A stretch of DNA of 64,000 nucleotides from an uncultured Opitutales bacterium (lineage in GTDB: Bacteria; Verrucomicrobiota; Verrucomicrobiia; Opitutales; JABDGR01). The DNA lies in NCBI GenBank assembly GCA_964562015.1, contig CAZLRH010000002.1, forward strand, positions 24,021 through 88,020, in the 5' to 3' direction. The notes under the pieces were generated by a model. It worked only from the letters and a program-made list of their open reading frames with translations. It ran no database searches and was not told where the DNA came from. Positions 1-12,417 of this stretch are shown piece by piece. The position numbers were made by a program, and so were the translations under genes. Within the stretch, counting starts at the first letter, position 1; each line of letters opens with the position of its first letter.

Positions 1-877
1 CCAAAAAGTGCGCGCATTGGGGTTGGAGGCCGCGAAGATGATTGGCCGCACTCCTTCGACCATTAACGCCGGACGAATTCTCCAGCACGGCACACCTGAG
101 TCCGTCAAGCAGTCTGCCATTTTTTTTAGAAATAGTTTGAGACCATACTGTGGACTATTGAATCTGGCACCCCGCGTCGTAGTGACAGTTGCTTCCAAAA
201 ATGAACCGGACCGGCGGGCAGTGCGAGACACCATGTATTGCGCAGGCAGCCGCGATGTATTACTTTTGGAGGCAGGCATGGCGGCCGCCATTGGTGCTGG
301 ATGGAACGTTCAGGAACCGGAATTTCGAGCCAGCTTAGTTTTCGAAAGAGACTGGTTTCAATACAGCGTGATTAGCCTGGCGGGCGTCGTGACTGGTGCG
401 CAAGAAGCCACGGGCTTTGAAAATCTGCTGGAAGATATTGCCATCTATTTGACTGAAACCCAGCAGTTCTGTCCGGCTCCAGACGTCCTTTTGAATCAAG
501 TCCGGCAATCGGGCTTTCGGCAAACGGCGGAGGGTGTGTTGGGATGGGATGCTTGGGTGGCCGATGTGTCACAAGGGCGGGCTCGTCTCGAAAACGTGGA
601 CGCAGAAAGCATGGTGCGTGGGGTCACCCCCGCCCTACGACGATTGGCGTTAAAAATTCAGCAGGCTCACCAAAGGCTAGACCGCGAAAAACAACTACTC
701 GCTGAAGCAGCCCCACTCCATATGTTTGGGGAATATGGAGAGATTCCTGGTTTGGCGGCTTTGCTGGAGCAGACCCTGAACCGCAAGGTGGTGGTCGGCC
801 CAGAACCGCGACAAGCAATGATTCGCGGCGCACTTTCGGTATTGAAAAATCTGGATTGGTGGCTCTCCAATATTTAA
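1..877 (+). CDS. MreB-like actin-family protein, 5'-truncated at window edge. ATP-binding motifs are degenerate, so it is a putative pseudo-ATPase paralog.
   Basis: The 8..877 ORF aligns along its whole length to the MreB C-terminal half: PRVVVTVASKNEPDRRAVR, LLLEAGMAAAIGAGW (MreB: IEEPMAAAIGAGL) and a C-terminal ...IRGALSVL. The phosphate-2 motif VVDIGGGTTEVAVISL is replaced by LVFERDWFQYSVISL. The adenosine motif VLTGGGALL is replaced by LHMFGEYGEIPGL. No in-window start; position 8 is an in-frame GTG. Confidence 0.7.
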   Translation, partial: QKVRALGLEAAKMIGRTPSTINAGRILQHGTPESVKQSAIFFRNSLRPYCGLLNLAPRVVVTVASKNEPDRRAVRDTMYCAGSRDVLLLEAGMAAAIGAGWNVQEPEFRASLVFERDWFQYSVISLAGVVTGAQEATGFENLLEDIAIYLTETQQFCPAPDVLLNQVRQSGFRQTAEGVLGWDAWVADVSQGRARLENVDAESMVRGVTPALRRLALKIQQAHQRLDREKQLLAEAAPLHMFGEYGEIPGLAALLEQTLNRKVVVGPEPRQAMIRGALSVLKNLDWWLSNI

Positions 878-999: not shown

Positions 1000-1761
1000 A
1001 TGATTTGGTACTACGTTGACGAGGGCAAGCAAGCCGGCCCGGTGGATGACGCCCAATTGGAGGCGTTGCGCGTGAGCGGCAAGGTCGGACCGAATACCTA
1101 TGTTTTCCGCGAGGGGATGACGAATTGGCAGCCGTACCACCAGGTCGTGGGCGGTGCCGGCCTCTCGACAACGGCCGGGCCGAACGAGGGGGTGTGCGTG
1201 GAATGCGGCAAGGTTTTCCCGCAGGACCAGTTGATGCAGCACGGCCAGTACTTTGTCTGCGCCCAGTGCAAACCGGTGTTTCTGCAAAAATTGGCGGAGG
1301 GCGCCGCGGTGGGCGGCCAGCCGGTGCACTACGCCGGCTTCTGGATCCGTTTTGTGGCCGCGTTCCTGGATGGCATTTTTTTGTGGATTATCCAGATTCC
1401 CGTGCGTCTCATCGCCGGAGTCGGCATATTGGGCCTGAACGGGCCGCCCCCGACCTCCCCGCCGACGCTGGCCACTTTCGTGCCGATGCTGGGGCTCTTG
1501 GTTGTTGGTTTTTTCATTACGTTTGGCTACGAGATTTTCATGGTGGGCAAATGGGGCGCCACGCTGGGCAAGATGGCGGTCAAGATCAAGGTGGTGACGG
1601 CGGACGGCGGACGCGTGAGTTATGCGCGCGCGACGGGCCGTTGCTTTGCGCGCATCGTCAGCGCCATGATTTGCTACATCGGCTATATCATGGTGGCTTT
1701 TGACGACCAAAAGAAGGCGCTGCATGATATGATGTGCAATACGCGCGTCATCTATAAATAA
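1000..1761 (+). CDS. DUF4339 (GYF-like) + Zn-ribbon + RDD family membrane protein
   Basis: N-terminus MIWYYVDEGKQAGPVDDAQLEALRVSGKVGPNTYVFREGMTNWQPY is the DUF4339 signature. Cys4 ribbon: CVECG...CAQC. C-terminal RDD-type TM domain: YAGFWIRFVAAFLDGIF...AFDDQKKALHDMMCNTRV. ATG at 1000 within the TTG-initiated ORF 961..1761. Confidence 0.75.
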   Translation: MIWYYVDEGKQAGPVDDAQLEALRVSGKVGPNTYVFREGMTNWQPYHQVVGGAGLSTTAGPNEGVCVECGKVFPQDQLMQHGQYFVCAQCKPVFLQKLAEGAAVGGQPVHYAGFWIRFVAAFLDGIFLWIIQIPVRLIAGVGILGLNGPPPTSPPTLATFVPMLGLLVVGFFITFGYEIFMVGKWGATLGKMAVKIKVVTADGGRVSYARATGRCFARIVSAMICYIGYIMVAFDDQKKALHDMMCNTRVIYK

Positions 1762-1770
1762 CCGGCCCCC

Positions 1771-2349
1771 ATGAGCCTGTCGCCCGTCTGCTGTCCCAAG
1801 TGCCGCGCGGTGCTTGCGCCGATTGCCCTCAACCATCCCGAACCAGACCCGTGCCCGGAGTGCGGCACGGAACTCGAAGTGGCGGTGTTTCCGGCGCTGT
1901 TCCGCTCGTTCACGCCGGGCCCGACCGCGGAGCTGGTCACGATGGAAGGCGAGTCCACCTGTTTCTATCATCCGGCGAAGAAGGCGATTCGCCCCTGCGA
2001 CGGCTGCGGGCGGTTCGTGTGCGCGCTGTGCGACTGCGAACTGCACGGGGCGCATTATTGCCCGTCGTGCCTGGAGGTTGGCCGGCGGAAGGGCAAAATC
2101 AAAAGCCTGGAAAACACGCGGCTGCGGTACGACAGCATTGCGCTGGGGCTGGCGGGCTTTCCACTGCTATTCTGGCCTATTTCGGTGGTCACGGCGCCAG
2201 TGGCCCTCTACTACGTATTTCGTTTTTGGAATGCGCCTCGCAGCCTCATCCGCCGCTCACGGTTTCGTTTTCTCCTCGCCGCGCTGCTCGCCAGCCTCGA
2301 GATAGTGGGGTGGTGCAGCGTGGCCTATTTCCTGATTAACGCGCATTGA
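1771..2349 (+). CDS. Zn-ribbon/B-box-like membrane protein (hypothetical)
   Basis: CPKC...CPEC and CFYHPAKKAIRPCDGCGRFVCALCDCELHGAHYCPSC Cys/His clusters, followed by two predicted TM helices. ATG 10 bp after the upstream stop. Confidence 0.55.
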   Translation: MSLSPVCCPKCRAVLAPIALNHPEPDPCPECGTELEVAVFPALFRSFTPGPTAELVTMEGESTCFYHPAKKAIRPCDGCGRFVCALCDCELHGAHYCPSCLEVGRRKGKIKSLENTRLRYDSIALGLAGFPLLFWPISVVTAPVALYYVFRFWNAPRSLIRRSRFRFLLAALLASLEIVGWCSVAYFLINAH

Positions 2350-2359
2350 TTCACTCCCC

Positions 2360-2956
2360 ATGGATAAGGAAAACTATGTGCGGCTGACACGCCCCGCCCA
2401 GCGGACGGCGGGCGGCCTCGTGGCCGTCAGCCAAGTGTACACCAGCCTCTGGCTGGGCTCCGATCACTTGTTGAGCGTCGAGACGAACGGCTTTACGGAA
2501 AACTACAAACGCTTTTATTACCGCGACATTCAGGCCATCGTTTTGCGGAAAACCAAGCGCTGGGTGCTTTGGCTGGCGGGGTGGGCCGTCTTCCTCCTCG
2601 CGGCCGGCGTCAGCGCGTATGCGGCGGAGGAAACCATCGGCTATTTGCTAGCGGCCATTTTTGCCGCCGTCGTGGCCGGTTTTCTGGGGATTGGATACCT
2701 AATAAAAGGCACGTCGACCACGGGCTATTTGCGCACAGCGGTGCAAACGGAGGAGCTGCCCTCGCTCCGGCGGCTGAAGTCGGCCCGCAAGGCGCTGGAC
2801 CGGTTGCGCCCGCTCATCGCCGCCGCGCAAGGCACGCTGCCGCCGGAAGAATTCGCCCAGCGGCTCGCCCTCCTGCAAGGGAACGGGACCTCCGCGATTC
2901 CACTCTCCACGGCTGCTTCCAGTCCGGCCACCTCCGTGCCCCCGGGGAATGTCTGA
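2360..2956 (+). CDS. hypothetical membrane protein
   Basis: 198-aa ORF with a central hydrophobic stretch (WVLWLAGWAVFLLAAGVSAYAA...AVVAGFLGIGYLI). Tightly spaced within the operon. No recognisable domain. Confidence 0.45.
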   Translation: MDKENYVRLTRPAQRTAGGLVAVSQVYTSLWLGSDHLLSVETNGFTENYKRFYYRDIQAIVLRKTKRWVLWLAGWAVFLLAAGVSAYAAEETIGYLLAAIFAAVVAGFLGIGYLIKGTSTTGYLRTAVQTEELPSLRRLKSARKALDRLRPLIAAAQGTLPPEEFAQRLALLQGNGTSAIPLSTAASSPATSVPPGNV

Positions 2957-2980
2957 GGACTTCTGTTTGCGCGCACCGCC

Positions 2981-3292
2981 ATGCCGTCCCTCGCCCAAGT
3001 CCGCTGCTACCACCATGTCGAGCGCGAAGCCGTGGCGCGGTGTCCGGCGTGCGGTCATTGCTACTGCCGCGAATGCATCACCGAGCACGACGACCGCGTC
3101 ATTTGCGCGGCCTGCCTTGCGAAATTGACCCGCGCGGCCCCGCAAAAAAAGATGAACTGGGCCGGCTTGGTTTATCTCGTGGGCGGCGGCGCGGGCCTGG
3201 TGGTCGCGTGGCTTTTCTTTTATTTGCTGGGCCATTACCTGCTCGGATTACCCACGGCGTTCCACGACGGAACGCTGTGGACGACCCACTGA
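2981..3292 (+). CDS. small B-box/Zn-ribbon membrane protein (hypothetical)
   Basis: RCYHHVEREAVARCPACGHCYCRECITEHDDRVICAAC, followed by a TM helix (LVYLVGGGAGLVVAWLFFYLL). Resembles the Cys-rich part of the 1771..2349 product. Confidence 0.5.
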   Translation: MPSLAQVRCYHHVEREAVARCPACGHCYCRECITEHDDRVICAACLAKLTRAAPQKKMNWAGLVYLVGGGAGLVVAWLFFYLLGHYLLGLPTAFHDGTLWTTH

Positions 3293-3302
3293 ACCGCCCG
3301 CC

Positions 3303-4991
3303 ATGAATCCGGCCCACCGCCCGCGCCAAGGCAAGACCGCCCTCGAAATGCTCGAGGAGGCGACGCAACTGCTGCGCACGTGTCCGTGGTCGGTGCTGGC
3401 CAGTTACTACACCGGCACGCTGCCGTTTGCGCTCGGCTTGCTGTATTTTTGGACGGACATGGGGCGCAACCCGTTCGCTGCGCGGCATGTGGTGGAAGGA
3501 GCGCTGGGGATGGCGTTGCTCTTTGCGTGGATGAAAGGCTGGCAGGCGGTGTTCGTACAACAATTGCGCGCCCGCCTGAGCGGAGCCCGCGACGCACCGT
3601 GGGACGGGGGGCGCTGGCGGCGCGTGCTTTTAACCCAATTGCTGCTGCAACCGGCGGGCCTATTCCTCGTCCAAATCACGCGGGTTTTTCTGCTGCCCTA
3701 CCCCTGGGTGAACGCCTTTTTTGAAAACTTGCTCGTCCTCGATGACGGGCGGGAACTGCGCGTGCGCGCCCTGTGCCGGCAAGCGTGGCGCTTGGCTGGG
3801 CTGTGGCCCCGGCAAAACATCCTGGCGATTCTCCTGCTTTGGGCCTTCAATTTTTGCGTCTTCCTCAATTGGGCGTCCGTGTGCATGTTATTGCCTCACT
3901 TGGTGAAAATGCTCACCGGCCTCGAGTCCGTGTTCACCCAAAGCAGCCTGGCGATGGTGAACTCGACCACCTTCATCATCGTGCTGACCCTGACATACCT
4001 CAGCGTAGACCCCATCGCCAAGGGGCTGTACGTGCTGCGTTGCTTTTATGGGGAGTCGCTGCGTTCGGGCGACGACTTGAAGGCGGAATTGAAAAGCGCG
4101 GCCCGCCCGGCGGCAGCCCTCGCGGCCACCCTGGCCCTGGCCGTTTTGGCGTTGAGCGTGCGACCTGGGCACGCGGCCGAAACGCCGACGGCTTCGCCGC
4201 CGGTCGCGCCAGAGAGCGCCGGCAGTGCCGGGCCGCCTTCGCCCGCCGCCACTCCGCAGGCGGTTTCGCCGCCGCAATTGAATCAAGCCATTGGCGAGGT
4301 GATTCACCGGGACAAATTCGTCTGGCGGATGCCGAAGGAAAAATTTGCCGAGGGCGACGAGTCCGAAAGCTGGCTCGCACAATTCTTCCACGAGGTCTAC
4401 AATACCCTGCGGGACTGGTATGATTACCTGCGGGATTTATGGCGCCGTTTCTGGGGCGAGGACGTCGCCAAGCCGTCGGCCCGCTCGCTCAGTTATGGCT
4501 GGATCACGTCGTCGCAGGTTTTGTTAATCAGCCTGATCTGCCTCGTGGGCGCCATCCTGGGCGTGGTACTGTACCGCACGCTGCGCCAGCGGGCCCGGCG
4601 GCGGGCGGTGGTGCAAAGCCAGCCCCTGCCCGCGCAGCCGGACCTGGCCGATGAGAACGTCAGCGCCGACCAGTTGCCCGAGGACGGCTGGACCACGCTC
4701 GCGCGGGAATTGCTGGCCCGCGGGGAATTCCGGCTCGCCCTGCGGGCCTTTTATCTTTCCAGCCTCGCGCATTTGGCGGCCCGGCAACTGATCGCCCTCG
4801 CCAAATTCAAATCCAACCGGGACTACGAGCGCGAATTGCGCCGCCGCGAACACGCCATCCCCGGCCTGCCCGGGCTCTTTGGCGAAAATGTCGTCGCCTT
4901 CGACCGCAGTTGGTACGGCCGCCATGAACTGAACGACGCGCTGGTGCGTCATTTCGCCGCCAACGTGGATAAAATAAAATCTCTCGAGTGA
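3303..4991 (+). CDS. DUF4129-type membrane protein (C-terminal transglutaminase-associated DUF4129-like domain)
   Basis: Multi-TM N-terminal half. C-terminal PEDGWTTLARELLARGEFRLALRAFYLSSLAHLAARQLIALAKFKSNRDYERELRRR fits the DUF4129 pattern. Sits upstream of DUF4350-MoxR-DUF58 as in the conserved cluster. Confidence 0.6.
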   Translation: MNPAHRPRQGKTALEMLEEATQLLRTCPWSVLASYYTGTLPFALGLLYFWTDMGRNPFAARHVVEGALGMALLFAWMKGWQAVFVQQLRARLSGARDAPWDGGRWRRVLLTQLLLQPAGLFLVQITRVFLLPYPWVNAFFENLLVLDDGRELRVRALCRQAWRLAGLWPRQNILAILLLWAFNFCVFLNWASVCMLLPHLVKMLTGLESVFTQSSLAMVNSTTFIIVLTLTYLSVDPIAKGLYVLRCFYGESLRSGDDLKAELKSAARPAAALAATLALAVLALSVRPGHAAETPTASPPVAPESAGSAGPPSPAATPQAVSPPQLNQAIGEVIHRDKFVWRMPKEKFAEGDESESWLAQFFHEVYNTLRDWYDYLRDLWRRFWGEDVAKPSARSLSYGWITSSQVLLISLICLVGAILGVVLYRTLRQRARRRAVVQSQPLPAQPDLADENVSADQLPEDGWTTLARELLARGEFRLALRAFYLSSLAHLAARQLIALAKFKSNRDYERELRRREHAIPGLPGLFGENVVAFDRSWYGRHELNDALVRHFAANVDKIKSLE

Positions 4992-6355
4992 ACACGTTAT
5001 TTTCCAAACCTTGGTTGCTGGGAGCCTGCGCACTGGGGTTTGCGCTCGGGCTGGCCTGGCTGTTGGCCCAGCGCTTCGCCGGAGGCGATGTTTATCCGCC
5101 TTATTCGTCGCTGCGCGCGGATCCGCTGGGCACGATGGCTTTTTACGAGAGCCTGGAACGCCTTCCGCAACTGACGGTGTCGCGGGATTTCACGATCACC
5201 AATGAAATGCCCGCCGATCACCACACCACCTACCTCCATCTGGCGGCTTCTCCCAGCGAGACTTCCCTGCCGCCGGAGGCCTTTCGGGCAGTGGAGGCTT
5301 TTCTCCTGCACGGCGGACGGCTGGTCGTCACCTACTTCCCGGAAGAAACGGAGAGCGATTCCACCCAGCCTTCGGCAAATGATGCCTCGGCAAAAAAGCC
5401 GGCAACGCCCGCGAAATCGTCCGCCAAACCCGCAGAGCCCACCGCGCCAGCAACGACGCCCACGCCCGGTGCAAAACCCGATGAAAAAAAGGCGGTCGCC
5501 GACAAACCGGCGAAGAAGCCGGCCAAACCCAAAGCGAAGCCTGACGCTGATGAAGAAACCGAGCCCGAGATTTCCCTGACCGAGAAATGGGGTTTTCAGA
5601 CGGCGTTCGACGCTTTGCCGGAGTCGGAAACGCATTACGATTCCGTCTTGGTTTTTCGCAAATCTGAACTGGCGCTACCCGCCGCCATGTCCTGGCACAG
5701 CGCCATGACCCTGTCGGAGCTGGATCCCGCGTGGAACGTGATTTACGCCCGCGGCCAAGCACCGGTGCTCGTCGAGCGCGCCTTCGGTGCGGGGTCGGTA
5801 ATTTTAGCCACCGACTCGTATTTCCTCAGCAACGAGGCGCTGTTCAAGGAACCTCATGCCGACCTGCTGGCGTGGATTTTGGGCGACAATCCCAACGTCG
5901 TCTTTGACGAAGCGCATCTGGGCGTGACCCAGACTTCCAACATCGCCGGACTCATCCGCCAATTTCGTCTACACGGGCTGGTCGTTGGCCTGCTGGTACT
6001 GGCCCTTTTGTTCATTTGGAAAAGTGCCGCGAGCCTCGTGCCGCCGCACGCCGTGGAAGCGCCCTCGCCCTATGTGGCGGGCAAGGATGCCGCCGGCGGA
6101 TTTGTGAACTTGCTGCGCCGCCACGTGCCCGGCACTAAGGTGCTGGACTTGTGTGTCACGGAATGGAAAAAGTCCCGCGCCCGCCTGGTGCCCGCGGTCA
6201 AGTTGCAGCAGATTCAAGCCGTGCTCGAGGCCGAGAACACCCGCCCCGCCCGCCAGCGCGATGCCGTCGCGGCGTACAATCAAATTTCCGCCATCCTCCG
6301 CCAGCCCGTACTTTCCGGCGCGGAGACCGCTCCCACCCAACCCCCCGCATCATGA
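4988..6355 (+). CDS. DUF4350 domain protein with Lys/Pro/Ala-rich low-complexity linker
   Basis: GTG start overlapping the upstream stop (GTGA). Signal-like N-terminus. VVFDEAHLGV motif typical of DUF4350. Internal PAKSSAKPAEP...PAKKPAKPKAKPDADEE stretch. Confidence 0.65.
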   Translation: MNTLFSKPWLLGACALGFALGLAWLLAQRFAGGDVYPPYSSLRADPLGTMAFYESLERLPQLTVSRDFTITNEMPADHHTTYLHLAASPSETSLPPEAFRAVEAFLLHGGRLVVTYFPEETESDSTQPSANDASAKKPATPAKSSAKPAEPTAPATTPTPGAKPDEKKAVADKPAKKPAKPKAKPDADEETEPEISLTEKWGFQTAFDALPESETHYDSVLVFRKSELALPAAMSWHSAMTLSELDPAWNVIYARGQAPVLVERAFGAGSVILATDSYFLSNEALFKEPHADLLAWILGDNPNVVFDEAHLGVTQTSNIAGLIRQFRLHGLVVGLLVLALLFIWKSAASLVPPHAVEAPSPYVAGKDAAGGFVNLLRRHVPGTKVLDLCVTEWKKSRARLVPAVKLQQIQAVLEAENTRPARQRDAVAAYNQISAILRQPVLSGAETAPTQPPAS

Positions 6356-7311
6356 ACGCAGACCGTCTCAAGGAAGTCCTGGCCGAAGCCAGGGCTGAAA
6401 CCGCCAAGGTCATCATCGGCCAGCACGAGGTCGTCGACCTGGCGCTCATTGCGATTTTCACGGGCAACCACGCGCTCATCGAGGGCGTGCCCGGCGTCGC
6501 CAAAACGCTGCTCGTGCGCACGCTCGCGCATGTGCTCGGGTGCGAATTCGCGCGCATCCAATTCACGCCCGACCTGATGCCGAGCGACATCACGGGCACC
6601 ACCATTTTCAACATGCAACGCAGTGAATTCACGGTTGCCAAGGGGCCCGTGTTCACGTCGTTTCTGCTGGCGGATGAAATCAACCGCGCGCCCGCGAAAA
6701 CGCAGTCCGCCCTGCTGCAGGCCATGCAGGAACGATGCGTGACCATCGACCGCGAGACGTACCCGCTGCCACCGAATTTCACGGTGTTTGCGACCCAAAA
6801 CCCCATCGAGTACGAGGGGACGTATCCGCTGCCGGAGGCGCAGAAGGACCGCTTCATGCTGAAGATCACGATGCGCGCCCCGGCCCGCGATGAGGAATTC
6901 ATCCTTGCCCAGCGCACGATGACCAAGGAGGCGCCGGAGGCCGTCCTGGCCCAGGGGGCGGTGCGCGCCGTGGTGCAATTGCAAGATTTGGCGGAGTTAC
7001 GCGAGCAACTGGCGGCCATCACCGTGCGCGAGGAATTGCTGGGCTACGTGGTGGACCTCGTGCGGGCGACGCGCCAGCATGAGAGCATCCTCGTCGGCGC
7101 GGGACCGCGCGCCACCCAGGCGCTCATCATGGCCGCCCGCGCGTGCGCCGCGCTGGCCGGGCGGGATTTCGTCACGCCCGACGACATCAAGACCATGGCG
7201 ACACCGGTGCTCGAACACCGCCTCATCCTGCGGCCCGAATTTGAAATCGAGGGCCTTGGGCTCATCGAAGTCATTCAGCAAATCCTCCAACAAATTGCGG
7301 TGCCGCGATGA
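6352..7311 (+). CDS. MoxR-family AAA+ ATPase
   Basis: IIGQHEVVDLALIAIFTGNHALIEGVPGVAKTLLVRTLAHVLG (Walker A), FLLADEINRAPAKTQSALLQAMQE (Walker B/sensor), and a C-terminal MoxR lid. ATG at 6352 overlaps the upstream TGA (ATGA). The ORF-track extension back to 6151 is rejected. Confidence 0.9.
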   Translation: MNADRLKEVLAEARAETAKVIIGQHEVVDLALIAIFTGNHALIEGVPGVAKTLLVRTLAHVLGCEFARIQFTPDLMPSDITGTTIFNMQRSEFTVAKGPVFTSFLLADEINRAPAKTQSALLQAMQERCVTIDRETYPLPPNFTVFATQNPIEYEGTYPLPEAQKDRFMLKITMRAPARDEEFILAQRTMTKEAPEAVLAQGAVRAVVQLQDLAELREQLAAITVREELLGYVVDLVRATRQHESILVGAGPRATQALIMAARACAALAGRDFVTPDDIKTMATPVLEHRLILRPEFEIEGLGLIEVIQQILQQIAVPR

Positions 7312-8642
7312 TCGCGCCCCGCACCAGTCTGCTGTTTTGGGTGGCGCTCGTGGTCCTGCCGCTCGCGGTGGTGCTGGCCGCTTCGCCCGCGGCCGAAACG
7401 GCCGGCTGGGCGCTCGCGGGCGGCCTGGGGCTGGTGGCCCTGCTTGACGCCCTCGGCGCGCGCACGCGGCTGTCCGACCTGCGCGTGGAACTGCCGCCGA
7501 TCGCCCGCATGTCGAAGGATCGGGACGCGAAACTGGAACTGCGCGTGTACAATGCCCGCCGGCGCCCGCTGACGTTGCGTTTTGCGCTCGCCCTGCCGCG
7601 CGAATTCGACTCCGCGCAACCCGACCTCGAAGTCGCCCTGCCGGACAGCGACGAGTGGTCGCGCTTCTCCTGGGCCTGCCGCCCGCGCCGCCGCGGCCGC
7701 TTTCAAATTGATACGGCGTACTTGGAAACGGCGTCACCCCTGGGCCTGTGGAGCGTGCGCCGCGCGGTGCCCGCATCCGCAGAAATCCGGGTGTACCCGA
7801 ATTTGCGCGCGGACCGCCGGAGCCTGGCGGCGTTGTTTTTGCACCGGCCGGCGCCGGGCCTGCGCACCCAACGGCAGGTCGGCAAGGGCCATGAATTTGA
7901 AAAACTGCGCGACTACGTGGCGGGCGATGGTTTTGAAGACGTGCACTGGAAGGCCACCGCGAAGCACGGCCGGCCCATCACCAAAGTATTTCAAGTCGAG
8001 CGCACGCAGGAAGTTTACGTGGTGCTCGATGCCTCGCGCCTCTCCGCCCGGCCGCCCGTGCCCGGCGACCGTTCCGGCGCGACTTGCCTCGAACGCTACG
8101 TCACCGCCGCGCTTGTGCTCGGTCTGGCCGCGGAGCAACAAGGCGATTTATTTGGCCTGCTCACGTTTGCGGACAAGGTGCAGACCTTCGTCCGCGCCAA
8201 GAACGGGCAGGCGCACTACAATGCCTGCCGTGATGCGCTCTACACGATTCAGCCGCAGGGCGTGTCGCCGGATTTTGACGAATTGTGCACGACCATCCGC
8301 CTGCGCCTGCGCCGCCGCACGCTGCTGATTTTCCTCACCTCCCTCGATGATCCCGAGCTGGCGTCAAGCTTTGTGAAAAACATGGACCTGTTGCGCCGCC
8401 AGCATCTCGTGGTGGTGAACATGATTCAGCCGCCGGGCGTGGCCCCCGTCTTTGGCGCGCCGATCGCCTCCGCGGACGAACTTTACCAGCAGCTCGGCGG
8501 CCACCTGCGCTGGCACAACCTGCGCGAATTGGAGAAAGTATTGCAGCGGCGGGGCGTGCAATTTCAATTGCTGAAAAATGAAAACCTCAGCGCGCAGGTG
8601 GTGACGCAATACCTCCGCATCAAACAAAGGCAGTTGTTGTGA
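7308..8642 (+). CDS. DUF58 domain protein (MoxR partner, vWA-like fold)
   Basis: FEKLRDYVAGDGFEDVHWKATAKHGRPITKVFQVERTQEVYVVLDAS is the canonical DUF58 core. N-terminal TM segments. ATGA overlap with moxR. Confidence 0.85.
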   Translation: MIAPRTSLLFWVALVVLPLAVVLAASPAAETAGWALAGGLGLVALLDALGARTRLSDLRVELPPIARMSKDRDAKLELRVYNARRRPLTLRFALALPREFDSAQPDLEVALPDSDEWSRFSWACRPRRRGRFQIDTAYLETASPLGLWSVRRAVPASAEIRVYPNLRADRRSLAALFLHRPAPGLRTQRQVGKGHEFEKLRDYVAGDGFEDVHWKATAKHGRPITKVFQVERTQEVYVVLDASRLSARPPVPGDRSGATCLERYVTAALVLGLAAEQQGDLFGLLTFADKVQTFVRAKNGQAHYNACRDALYTIQPQGVSPDFDELCTTIRLRLRRRTLLIFLTSLDDPELASSFVKNMDLLRRQHLVVVNMIQPPGVAPVFGAPIASADELYQQLGGHLRWHNLRELEKVLQRRGVQFQLLKNENLSAQVVTQYLRIKQRQLL

Positions 8643-9655
8643 TCATCGACCTCCAGCGTTTTTTGCAAACCGAGCGGCCCTACTGGACGGAGCTGGAAAG
8701 CTTCCTCAACCAGTTGGAGGCCGAACCTAACCTCGTGCTTTCGCTCGAGCGTTTGCGGCACTTTCACCATCTCTACGAGCGGACCGCCGCCGACCTGGCG
8801 AAAATCACGACCTTTTCCTCCGAGCCGGAAACCCGCCGGTATTTGGAGAACCTGGTGGCGCGCGCGTATGGCGAAATCCATGAAACCCGCGTGAAAGCTC
8901 GGCGGTTTTCGCCGCTGCAATGGTTTCTCAAGGATTTGCCGCGCACGTTCCGGCGGCACCTGGGCGCGTTTGGGTTGTCCCTCGGCATCACGCTGGCCGG
9001 TTGTGCGTTCGGCACCCTGGCGCTCGCGCTCGATCCGGCGTCGAAGCAGGTGCTCATGCCGTTTGCGGGCTTGCAGGGCGACCCGACCAAGCGCGTGGCC
9101 GAAGAGGAGAAAATGAAACAGGACCGCCTGGAAGGCCACCGGCCGGATTTTTCCGCCGGCCTCATGACGCATAACACGCGGGTCTCCATTTTCACGATGG
9201 CGCTGGGCATGACGTGGGGCGTGGGCACGATTTTCATGCTCTTCTACAATGGCGTTCTGCTCGGCGCGGTCGCCTTCGACTACATCCGGGCCGGACAGAC
9301 GACGTTCCTGCTCGGCTGGCTGCTGCCGCACGGGGTCGTGGAGATTCCTTCCATCCTGATTGCGGGGCAGGCGGGTTTGGTGCTGGCGCGCGCGCTCATC
9401 GGCTGGGGCCGGCAAATACCGCTCACCGCGCGGCTGCGGGAAATCTCGCATGATTTGGTGACGCTGATTTTCGGCGTCGCGGTCCTCCTGGTCTGGGCAG
9501 GTTTTGTGGAATCATTTCTGTCCCAATACCACGAGCCGGTGGTCCCGTACTCCGCGAAAATCGCCTTCGGGTTGGTCGAGTTGTCGTTGCTGACCCTGTT
9601 CCTCGCCAAGTCCGGCACCAAAGCCACGCCGGCCACGGACGGACCGCCCGCATGA
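8639..9655 (+). CDS. SpoIIM-like / DUF95 family membrane protein
   Basis: GTG start in a GTGA overlap. Multi-TM protein. LLPHGVVEIPSILIAGQAGLVLARAL matches the stage II sporulation protein M-like family. Position matches the conserved cluster. Confidence 0.65.
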   Translation: MIIDLQRFLQTERPYWTELESFLNQLEAEPNLVLSLERLRHFHHLYERTAADLAKITTFSSEPETRRYLENLVARAYGEIHETRVKARRFSPLQWFLKDLPRTFRRHLGAFGLSLGITLAGCAFGTLALALDPASKQVLMPFAGLQGDPTKRVAEEEKMKQDRLEGHRPDFSAGLMTHNTRVSIFTMALGMTWGVGTIFMLFYNGVLLGAVAFDYIRAGQTTFLLGWLLPHGVVEIPSILIAGQAGLVLARALIGWGRQIPLTARLREISHDLVTLIFGVAVLLVWAGFVESFLSQYHEPVVPYSAKIAFGLVELSLLTLFLAKSGTKATPATDGPPA

Positions 9656-10431
9656 AAACCAGCGCGCTACTTATCCGCACGCCCGAAGGCATTGTGTTCG
9701 CGCAAGAGCTGGCCGGGCCCATTGCGCGTTTTCTGGCATGGCTGGTGGACCAGGCGTGCATTATCGCCTCAACTCAAGTGCTGGGCGTGGCCTTGCGCGC
9801 CGTCGGCCTGCTCAGTCCGTCGCTGGCGCAGACCTTTTTTATTCTCACTTATTTTATCCTCAGCCTCGGCTACGGAATGGCGTGCGAATGGTGGTGGCGC
9901 GGGCAGACGCTCGGCAAGCGGGTGCTGCGCCTGCGGGTGATGGACGCCGAGGGCCTGCGGCTGCATTTCCCCCAAATTGTCATCCGCAATCTGCTGCGGG
10001 CGGTGGATGTGCTGCCCGTCGCCTATTTTCTCGGCGGCGTGGTGTGCTGGTGCAGCGCCAAGGGCCAGCGCCTGGGCGACATCGCCGCGAACACCATCGT
10101 CGTGCGCCATCCGAAAATCATCGAACCGGACCTCGGCCAATTGCTGGCGGGCAAATACAATTCCCTGCGCCTGCACCCGCACCTGGCGGCGCGCCTGCGC
10201 CAGCGCGTTTCGCCGGGCGAGGCCTCCGTGGCGCTGCAGGCGATTTTTCGGCGCGACGAATTTGAGCCGCTGGCGCGCGTGGAACTTTTTGCCGAGCTGG
10301 CGCAACATTTCCGCGCCAAAGTCGATTTTCCCGCGGAAGTCTGCGCAGGCATCACGGACGAGCAGTACATGCGCAACGTGGTCGACGTGGTGTACCGGCA
10401 GCAGGCCCAACCGCCGATCATGCGCCATTGA
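9652..10431 (+). CDS. RDD family membrane protein
   Basis: WWWRGQTLGKRVLRLRVMDAEGLRLHFPQIVIRNLLRAVDVLP is the classic RDD core. ATGA overlap with the upstream gene. Confidence 0.8.
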   Translation: MKTSALLIRTPEGIVFAQELAGPIARFLAWLVDQACIIASTQVLGVALRAVGLLSPSLAQTFFILTYFILSLGYGMACEWWWRGQTLGKRVLRLRVMDAEGLRLHFPQIVIRNLLRAVDVLPVAYFLGGVVCWCSAKGQRLGDIAANTIVVRHPKIIEPDLGQLLAGKYNSLRLHPHLAARLRQRVSPGEASVALQAIFRRDEFEPLARVELFAELAQHFRAKVDFPAEVCAGITDEQYMRNVVDVVYRQQAQPPIMRH

Positions 10432-12417
10432 TCATTTGACCTCGGCCGGCTGCTCCTCCGCCTCCGCGGCGGCCTCCGCGAGGCCGGCGAGTTTGAAATG
10501 CTGGGCGGTGAAATCGGCGGCCTGCACCACGGCGCGAAACACGCCTTTCAAAATTTCCTGGTCGATTTTGCTCAACTCCTCGGGGCGGATGAATTGGCCG
10601 TTGTCGCCGTGACGGAAGCCCGCGAGCGCCTGATGGTAAAGCGTGGCGCGCGCGGCCTCCGCGGCGTCCTCGAGTGCGGCGCGCCCGGCGGGCAGGCGTT
10701 GCGCGGCCTGCAAAAAGCGCGCGCTCGTGCTGAGCGGGTCCGGGCCGCCTGCCTCGAGGGCGAACACGCGCGCCATGTCGGCCAGCGGTTGGAGGGCGTG
10801 CTGCCGGGTGTCGATGCAGGTCCAGAGCAGGCCCTCCTTGTCCACGACGGCGTTGCGGAAAATGGTCAGCGGCGGCAAATTGGCGAGGGAGTCGTTGGCC
10901 GCGAGCAAAATAAACTGGGCCTGCTCTGCGATGCGCGCGCGAACGTGCCCGCGCAATTGTTCGGCGAGTTCACCCGCACCGGCCACTGCGCGCAGGTCAA
11001 AAAACGGCAAACGGGAAAGGATGTTCTCCTCGACGGGGCTTTCGATCCAGGTTTGAAAAACCCCGCGCCAACTGGAGAGCGACCGGCAGCAACCCGGTTG
11101 CGCGGCGACCATGCCCTCCGGCGAAGGACGAAAACCCACCGCCGCCAGGCCCGCCGTCACCTGCTCGGCCAGCCGCAAAAACCACGCCTGCACCGCGGCT
11201 TCCCGTCCGGGCGGCGGGTCGGCAAAGACGAGCGCGGTTTCCTGGTGCGAGCGCAACAAGCGCTCGCGGCGGCCCTCGGCGCCCACGGCCAGCCAGCAAA
11301 AATTCACGCCCGGCGCGGGCTCGCCGGAGGCGGCCATTTCCGCCGCGGCCAAATCCAGCAGGCGGGCGGTGATCTGGTCGTCCACCTCGCTGATAAAATC
11401 TCCCGCCCAGCTCAAGGGCGCGCGTTCCTGCAGGGCGAACTTGAGCAAATCCTCCGCGCGTTCGCGGAAGGCGCGCAAAGCGGCGGCATCCGGGGCCGTG
11501 CGGATTTCCATGCCCAGGGCAATCGGCAAACGCCCGTACAACACCTGCGTGTCGCGCTCGCTGATCAAGCCCGCCACGGAGGTTGCCGTCGTGCCATCGA
11601 CCGTGACCACCAGATGGCGGACCTTGTGCCGCAGCATTTCCAACACAATCTCGCCGGCGGTCAGGCCCGGCCGGACCGTCCACACCGGCCGGCTCATGAT
11701 GGCTTCGACGGGCGCCAGCAACGGCACTTCGCCGGTGGCCACGCGATGCACCAAATCCGTTTCCGTGATGACGCCGAGCGGGCGGCCGCCCGTGTCCACC
11801 ACCACCAGGGCGTCGCCGCGCGTGCGCAGGCGCTGGGCGGCGTCGCGCACGCTCATGGTCGGCAGGCCCGTGAGGAGGCGCCAGCGAGCGCGCTCCGCCA
11901 GCGGCGCGGTGGCGGAGAGCCAGGTGTCCGCGGCCTCGGTGGTCGAGCCCGCGCGCGAGGGGGCCGTGCCGGCCTGCGGGTCGGGCAATTGAAAATCGGG
12001 CCGGAGGGAAAAATAGGCGGCAAGATAGCGCGATACTTTCGGATATTTGCGGGCCAGCGGCGCAAAATCATCCCACGGCAGCGCGTACAGCAGGGTGTCC
12101 GTCTCGGTGCGAGCGCTTTGCACGAAGGTCTTCTCGCTGAGGAACCAGGAGATGCCGAGCAGGTCGCCCACGCCGCGCATGTCCACGAGTTCCTCGCCGC
12201 GCGGGGTGTTTTGCACGACGCGCACGGTGCCTTGCTGGATGACGTAGAGCCACGGGCCCCGCGGCTCACCCTGGCGGAAAATATATTCTCCCTCCTCGTG
12301 GAATTTCACCCGGCCCAGCGAGGCCAGCCGCTGGACGTCGGCCGGTTCCATGTACTCAAACGGCGGGTGCTCCTTGAGAAAGTCGGCGACCCGCAGGGCG
12401 ATGCTCGAAGTCTTCAT
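10432..12417 (-). CDS. cyclic-nucleotide-binding + tandem CBS + DUF294 (putative nucleotidyltransferase) signalling protein
   Basis: cNMP-binding beta-roll at the N-terminus (GEYIFRQGEPRGPWLYVIQQGTVRV), then CBS pairs and a C-terminal DUF294-like region. Start chosen at MKTSSIAL (12417). An in-frame upstream ATG at 12501 is also possible. Confidence 0.7.
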   Translation of the reverse strand: MKTSSIALRVADFLKEHPPFEYMEPADVQRLASLGRVKFHEEGEYIFRQGEPRGPWLYVIQQGTVRVVQNTPRGEELVDMRGVGDLLGISWFLSEKTFVQSARTETDTLLYALPWDDFAPLARKYPKVSRYLAAYFSLRPDFQLPDPQAGTAPSRAGSTTEAADTWLSATAPLAERARWRLLTGLPTMSVRDAAQRLRTRGDALVVVDTGGRPLGVITETDLVHRVATGEVPLLAPVEAIMSRPVWTVRPGLTAGEIVLEMLRHKVRHLVVTVDGTTATSVAGLISERDTQVLYGRLPIALGMEIRTAPDAAALRAFRERAEDLLKFALQERAPLSWAGDFISEVDDQITARLLDLAAAEMAASGEPAPGVNFCWLAVGAEGRRERLLRSHQETALVFADPPPGREAAVQAWFLRLAEQVTAGLAAVGFRPSPEGMVAAQPGCCRSLSSWRGVFQTWIESPVEENILSRLPFFDLRAVAGAGELAEQLRGHVRARIAEQAQFILLAANDSLANLPPLTIFRNAVVDKEGLLWTCIDTRQHALQPLADMARVFALEAGGPDPLSTSARFLQAAQRLPAGRAALEDAAEAARATLYHQALAGFRHGDNGQFIRPEELSKIDQEILKGVFRAVVQAADFTAQHFKLAGLAEAAAEAEEQPAEVK

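Follow-up and report, generated by a model that had tools for sequence, protein, structure and literature searches.

The first 877 nt of the window, as we call the whole 64,000-nt stretch of DNA analyzed here, carry on the plus strand the 3′ part of a gene for an MreB-like protein (876 nt, comprising codons 45 to 335 and a TAA stop codon at positions 875-877), which was recognized by the Pfam MreB_Mbl profile, AF2 modeling, and Foldseek. Translation of positions 2-877 yields 291 amino acids and then the TAA, with no stop codon in between. The 5′ end of the gene is present in a public contig with identical DNA (L001), in which window position 1 corresponds to position 1934, and not a single mismatch was found across 10,877 nt. 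To the left of the window, the MreB-like frame stays open and the homology to MreB goes on; the ATG is located 134 nt outside the window, at position 1803 of L001, and the whole open reading frame (ORF) comprises 335 codons. The N terminus of the 335-aa product reads MGLLPSGFGKSVAIALGSDHVWLASRD..., and from residue 2 through the last residue the protein can be aligned colinearly with canonical MreB, interrupted by a single one-codon gap. When canonical MreB was searched against the locus by tblastn, a single frame was matched, with no match in any other frame and no frameshift in the gene, a result that also disposes of a frameshifted pseudogene carrying compensating shifts. The first-pass annotation had described the product as colinear with the C-terminal ca. 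290 aa of MreB and the ORF as intact. Both descriptions hold, since the MreB_Mbl profile and the alignments with 1jce and 4cze agree on the colinearity, and the missing 5′ part, in which a frameshift or stop codon was looked for, proved to be open in the same single frame. The motif strings quoted in that annotation are likewise all present in the translation of positions 2-877, including PRVVVTV (nt 170-190), DRRAVRD (209-229), LLEAGMAAAIGAGW (from 263), LVFERDWFQY (335-364), and LHMFGEYGEIPGL (716-754).

In the public gene call P0001 (279 aa), translation starts from an internal ATG at positions 38-40 (plus strand). This ATG is preceded by a GGAGG at positions 24-28, but the latter sits within L-E-A codons, and the N termini of the family members described below align with the upstream ATG instead. 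Thus, the ATG at 38-40 is probably not the true start, and the database protein P0001 is probably truncated at its N terminus; a start 56 codons upstream is backed by the ORF and the family alignment. Close to this site, positions 20-64 (plus strand) encode the subdomain IB segment GLEAAKMIGRTPSTI, which is conserved with canonical MreB in the alignments.

The MreB-like gene is flanked by an alpha-L-rhamnosidase gene on one side and, on the other, by a ten-gene cluster on the same strand (positions 1000-10431, plus strand). The cluster encodes a protein with GYF_2 and RDD domains, three small Cys-rich/membrane ORFs, a DUF4129-like protein, a DUF4350 protein, a MoxR AAA+ ATPase, a DUF58 protein, a SpoIIM-like protein, and an RDD protein, and it is a MoxR/DUF58-type module. 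The three small ORFs gave no Pfam matches, and two of them contain CxxC-rich, B-box-like segments. A 122-nt spacer (positions 878-999) precedes the GYF_2/RDD gene, and a scan of this spacer for terminator-like or promoter-like sites found nothing above the shuffled background. The MreB-like gene had initially been placed at the head of a long operon, a claim that was not supported. Apart from the 122-nt gap, the GC content at third codon positions (GC3) of the gene is 0.54 versus 0.72 to 0.83 in all nine flanking genes (window positions 1000-10431 and L001 positions 2-1696), and this neighborhood was found with no other member of the family. Neither mreC nor mreD, pbp2, or rodA is linked to the MreB-like gene, and no canonical mreB is present within the 64-kb window. 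The first-pass designation "paralog" presupposes such a gene elsewhere in the same genome and is to be taken as provisional.

The relationship of the product to MreB was evident from profile and fold comparisons. The 291-aa part matched the Pfam MreB_Mbl model (PF06723) with 87.3 bits (E value of 1e-24; gathering cutoff, 27 bits), covering profile positions 38-323 of 327, and it showed no match up to an E value of 10 to the other actin-fold models of Pfam (Hsp70, FtsA, PilM, ParM, and Actin); MreB_Mbl is its sole Pfam match. The same holds for 25 members of its family, which matched MreB_Mbl only and none of the other actin-fold models at an E value of ≤0.001, whereas canonical MreBs match the HSP70, FtsA, Actin, and PilM_2 models as well as MreB_Mbl. 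The NCBIfam models of canonical MreB, TIGR00904 and NF010539, were not reached (79.1 bits versus a cutoff of 293 and 68.4 bits versus 365.75, respectively). In a phmmer search against PDB sequences, the protein was colinear with the MreBs of Thermotoga maritima, Caulobacter crescentus, and Geobacillus (solved chains 1jce and 4cze). AF2 modeled the 291 residues of the window with a pLDDT of 91.7 and a pTM of 0.87, using an alignment of the family together with five canonical sequences, and the full-length top relative P0123 with a pLDDT of 93.9 and a pTM of 0.91, using family sequences only. For both models, the best 25 PDB matches in Foldseek were MreB (TM scores of 0.79 to 0.86; E values of 1e-17 to 1e-29), followed by Hsp70, MamK, and actin at TM scores of ∼0.6 to 0.7. 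The middle third of the protein, which has diverged to ∼10% identity with MreB, was modeled with the same confidence as the rest. The predicted structure is a four-subdomain actin fold that lies nearest to the solved MreB structures.

While the fold is that of MreB, the nucleotide-binding and catalytic motifs are not. Phosphate-1, encoded upstream of the window and out of sight of the first-pass annotation, is lost too, with DLGT changed to ALGS (IGIDLGTANT to VAIALGSDHV). The other motifs are encoded on the plus strand of the window. Positions 263-301 encode LLEAGMAAAIGAG, in which the core MAAAIG helix has survived but Ala has taken the place of the catalytic Glu in EEP; this Glu, E140 in C. 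crescentus MreB (CcMreB), is the water-activating residue (PMC9597168), and it is kept in 0 of 25 members. The catalytic motif E...T-x-[D/E] (E140, T167, and E169 in CcMreB) reads A...W-F-Q in the window protein. At positions 335-364, the phosphate-2 hairpin is changed from VDIGGGTTEV to LVFERDWFQY, with FERDW at nt 341-355, and it bears the x-x-D-W signature of the family in the motif tables. The helices that carry GGDxxD and the ribose-binding GERTAEEIK in MreB are encoded by positions 410-514 and read TGFENLLEDIAIY ... CPAPDVLLNQVRQSG here, with the canonical residues kept in none of the 25 and G-x3-L-x-E-D-I as the consensus of the family. Positions 542-580 specify GWDAWVADVSQGR, a family-specific motif with the consensus GWEAW-x6-GR; judged by the family alignment and the AF2 secondary structure, it is located at the beta-hairpin of subdomain IIB, for which strands 176-183 and 194-199 were predicted in the model of the window protein. 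Finally, the adenosine loop (positions 716-754) has been changed from IVMAGGGSLIRNL to LHMFGEYGEIPGL, such that GGG is replaced by GEYGEIPG; the family pattern is G-x5-P-G, and GGG occurs in 0/25 and PG in 21/25 members.

These assignments, two of which (phosphate-2 and the adenosine loop) had been proposed from the window alone, turned out to be correct. In pairwise and multiple alignments FERDW falls on DIGGG and FGEYGEIPGL on AGGGSLIRNL, and misassignment was looked for in HMM, pairwise, multiple, and structure-based alignments, all of which place the same residues on the motifs. Apart from a generally low sequence identity (∼31%), nothing suggests that the protein is a canonical MreB or belongs to another actin-fold family (ParM/Alp, FtsA, PilM, or Hsp70) and that its motifs were misread, and the consistent alignments, the scores far under the NCBIfam cutoffs (68 to 79 bits versus 293 to 366), and the exclusive match to MreB_Mbl in Pfam refute this reading, to which we assign a negligible probability.

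The replacements are not peculiar to the window protein. An exhaustive HMMER scan of 1.84 billion representative sequences yielded full-length relatives with the same losses, which form about 32 to 40 clusters at 50% identity. P0123, a 332-aa protein with 40% identity to the window protein, was the top relative at 228 bits, and it was followed by ∼30 further representatives, all of which outscored the canonical MreBs. The family is visible by exhaustive search only. A word-indexed homology search found nothing between 100% and 32% identity to the window protein, word-indexed searches with the family profile were either flooded by canonical MreBs or returned just 5 members, and a scan of the contigs of GTDB representative genomes gave canonical verrucomicrobial MreBs only. 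Among the top 150 sequences, those of at least 300 aa comprised 32 with x-x-D-W versus 62 canonical-like proteins with DxGxG. DxGT, the second Glu of EEP, DxGGGT, GERTAEEIK, and GGG are each kept in 0 of the 25 aligned members, whereas the family has conserved features of its own: the [ESD]-x-D-W hairpin (D in 100% and W in 94% of the 32 full-length members, D-W in 23 of the 25 aligned ones), an acidic residue on the first (phosphate-1) hairpin, G-x3-L-x-E-D-I, GWEAW-x6-GR, and G-x5-P-G. A short hydrophobic N-terminal segment, resembling the membrane-targeting helix of Gram-negative MreBs, is present in most members.

In neighbor-joining (NJ) trees, the family is monophyletic with 100% bootstrap support for the N-terminal as well as the C-terminal half, and the window protein is the sister of P0123 (98% in the C-terminal half). 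When tested against a leave-one-out profile of the remaining 24 members, the window protein scored 349.6 bits, the 6th of the 25, compared with 194 to 206 bits for canonical MreBs, and it is thus a typical rather than a degenerate member. In full-text literature searches, no account of an MreB lineage without a binding site turned up. The MreB-derived group has yet to be annotated as a family. Pfam-based pipelines currently label its members "MreB/Mbl" or "rod shape-determining protein," and this label is misleading.

Among four metagenome orthologues (L032 to L035), dN/dS values ranged from 0.085 to 0.13, indicating that purifying selection acts on the family. Comparison of the window gene with the P0123 gene gave identities of 0.49, 0.63, and 0.29 at the first, second, and third codon positions (0.28, 0.26, and 0.26 expected), indicating saturation at the third position and conservation at the first two. 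The GC contents at first and second codon positions of the gene (0.64 and 0.45, respectively) are still coding-like. It had been argued from the intact ORF that the protein is maintained and not a decaying pseudogene, and this claim gains support from the losses in all 25 relatives together with the new conserved motifs and the low dN/dS. A decaying mreB pseudogene that is still open by chance might be suspected from the GC3 of 0.54 in a genome near 0.8, the lack of a close orthologue above 40% identity, and the truncated public gene call. It is nevertheless a very improbable explanation: the 335 codons are free of stops, compared with none of 100,000 nucleotide shuffles of the gene (the other five frames hold 5 to 17 stops), the gene aligns with MreB with only one codon-sized indel, its derived motifs are those of a family evolving at a dN/dS of ∼0.1, its codon-position pattern against the sister gene is that described above, and its leave-one-out profile score is typical of the family.

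Elsewhere, a member 55% identical to P0349 (L037, MTKZ01006654.1, positions 7983-8992) is spread over two ORFs that overlap (7983-8744 and 8651-8992), as the result of either a sequencing error or a frameshift in a decaying copy; since it looks frameshifted, individual copies of the family can decay.

The nearest canonical MreBs come from metagenome-assembled genomes of Opitutales, Puniceicoccales, and Verrucomicrobiia, which makes a verrucomicrobial host probable. The best canonical match, P0002, shares 31% identity with the window protein and is encoded within an mreB-mreC-x-pbp2 operon, on a contig that has the same G+C content and GC3 as the window. The two proteins have their C-terminal tail in common. 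In the window gene the tail NLDWWLSNI is encoded by positions 848-874 (plus strand), and its first eight residues, NLDWWLSN (848-871), are found exactly in P0002 (L002, about positions 10987-11010), whereas they are absent from P0003, a relative 90% identical to P0002, and from P0123. The codons of the two tails differ at synonymous sites (e.g., TCC versus AGC for Ser), and the longest stretch of identical DNA that the window gene shares with the P0002 gene measures 11 nt, so recent gene conversion is unlikely. A half-chimera or a recent conversion with a canonical mreB was rejected at the scale tested, since both halves of the protein group within the family and the longest DNA match is 11 nt. 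A DNA-pattern scan of JGI metagenome contigs for the shared tail gave no match. A common constraint or a common partner is a possible reason for the shared tail.

The genomic contexts of the family are diverse, and no neighbor that would point to a partner or pathway is shared across seven different contexts. In addition to the location in the window, members are encoded after a pair of genes for a nucleotidyltransferase and PDC-M05B, between def and fmt, before a gene for an ankyrin/TonB_C protein, after two unassigned ORFs, between flavodoxin and DUF218 genes, and beside a peptidase S15 gene. A deviating GC3 was also found for the members in L003 and L027. The GC3 mismatch suggests horizontal movement or foreign origin, or else a relaxed codon bias, and the window copy may be expressed at a low level or not at all. 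The pair of genes encoded directly 5′ of P0123 (L003, positions 175-1171) consists of a Polbeta/NTP_transf_2 gene overlapping a gene for a 147-aa protein, and the product matches the PADLOC candidate PDC-M05B with an E value of 1e-41. The two genes, whose GC3 matches the low value of the P0123 gene, look like a candidate toxin-antitoxin or defense pair.

These features may be read as those of a horizontally moving accessory gene whose role is unrelated to MreB or cell shape, e.g., one for an actin-fold scaffold of an island-borne or envelope-stress system. The context that differs at every locus, the GC3 that departs from that of the neighbors in the window, L003, and L027, and the candidate defense or toxin-antitoxin pair next to P0123 all fit such a reading. 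We nevertheless regard it as unlikely, because PADLOC gave no match for the MreB-like protein itself, both the IA/IB core and the hydrophobic segment at the N terminus have kept their likeness to MreB, and the eight-residue tail is identical to that of a canonical verrucomicrobial MreB despite the different codons, suggesting a shared constraint or partner.

On the basis of these results, the gene in the window likely encodes a maintained member of an MreB-derived family that has lost canonical nucleotide binding. The designation "pseudo-ATPase," introduced in the first-pass annotation, is a prediction from sequence. Canonical nucleotide binding in the family appears very unlikely, given the loss of all three glycine loops together with the catalytic Glu and the contacts to the ribose. 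The cleft between domains I and II would then no longer hold ATP and would probably be filled and stapled by conserved side chains of the new hairpins (acidic, basic, and Trp), which would fix the protein in one conformation. Such a protein may act via protein-protein contacts at the membrane, without a nucleotide cycle, either by forming a static polymer with itself or by serving canonical MreB filaments as a partner or cap; the choice of one of these cellular roles is much less certain than the loss itself. The retained IA/IB core and the hydrophobic N-terminal segment suggest that membrane association and MreB-type contacts survive, while the rewritten IIB hairpin GWEAW...GR suggests an altered longitudinal interface. 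It is from the motif loss, the putatively stapled cleft, the kept core, and the new IIB hairpin that we favor a nucleotide-independent structural or regulatory subunit.

There is a different way to read the same replacements. The pocket could have been remodeled, such that D, W, E, R, and PG, the residues newly conserved in the family, still bind a nucleotide or some other ligand, phosphorylated or small, and a ligand-controlled conformational switch is kept. The replacements are themselves conserved, as in a functional site (D in 100% and W in 94%, with the new acidic residue on the phosphate-1 hairpin), and there is a precedent in Spiroplasma MreB3 (7E1G). The catalytic E...T-x-[D/E] is conserved in 95.8% of MreBs but is missing from MreB3, which releases Pi very slowly and still binds ATP or AMPPNP and polymerizes upon nucleotide binding (PMC9597168). 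MreB3 is the nearest precedent for the family in having lost the catalytic motif, but it keeps the glycine loops, whereas the family has lost the binding loops too, and there is no specific relationship between the two. Since all three ASKHA glycine-rich phosphate/adenosine loops and the ribose-contacting Glu and Lys are gone, and since the members, unlike canonical MreBs, no longer match the HSP70, FtsA, Actin, and PilM_2 models, we consider a remodeled pocket improbable and prefer the loss of nucleotide binding.

Relative to canonical MreB, Mbl, and MreBH (PF06723; 1JCE, 4CZJ, and 7ZPT), the family has the same fold and length and is colinear (TM scores of 0.80 to 0.86). It shares with them the IA/IB core (GxEAxxMxGRxPxxI, PRVV, AGAxxVxLxE..MAAAIG, and VISLAG) and the short hydrophobic N terminus. 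It differs in that the nucleotide and catalytic motifs are all replaced, the IIB subdomain bears GWEAW...GR, no mreCD, pbp2, or rodA genes are located beside it, and the scores fall far under the NCBIfam cutoffs. ParM/Alps, MamK, FtsA, PilM, and FcmB have the same actin fold, some of them with new cellular roles, but they keep the nucleotide-binding motifs, and the family matches none of their Pfam models; MamK and Hsp70 are structurally further from it than MreB is (TM scores of ∼0.6 to 0.7). FcmB, which was described recently as a fifth family of bacterial actins, is derived from ParM (PMC12645912) and is unrelated to the family reported here.

A working analogy for a noncatalytic MreB-like subunit is offered by TsaB/YeaZ and by the eukaryotic actin-related proteins with degenerate ATP sites, which are ASKHA-fold paralogues that have lost catalysis and take on a structural role alongside an active relative. 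These proteins fall into other branches of the superfamily and have the fold alone in common with the family. As a tentative and rather speculative extension, the family could correspond, in bacteria, to the eukaryotic actin-related proteins, with a cleft permanently occupied by Trp, Asp, and Arg side chains of the protein itself, and in Verrucomicrobia-like bacteria it could coassemble with canonical MreB filaments at the membrane, cap them, or serve as their template. If true, this would be the first natural bacterial actin-fold cytoskeletal protein that works without ATP. To our knowledge, all characterized bacterial actins (MreB, ParM, MamK, FtsA, and others) control their assembly by the bound nucleotide. 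If the binding site has truly been discarded under purifying selection, the family would provide a natural test of the actin fold without a nucleotide switch, and it would also point to an unrecognized regulator or structural partner of the cell shape machinery in poorly studied PVC-type bacteria.

Further observations were made on individual members of the family. P0125, P0126, and P0131 have charged, low-complexity N-terminal extensions of 60 to 130 residues before the hydrophobic segment and the actin fold. P0145 was found with identical sequence on 21 contigs from many samples (among them L028 to L031, positions 9205-11023). An unannotated ORF of 264 aa ends 2 nt before its start codon, suggesting that P0145 is translationally coupled with the product of this ORF in its lineage.
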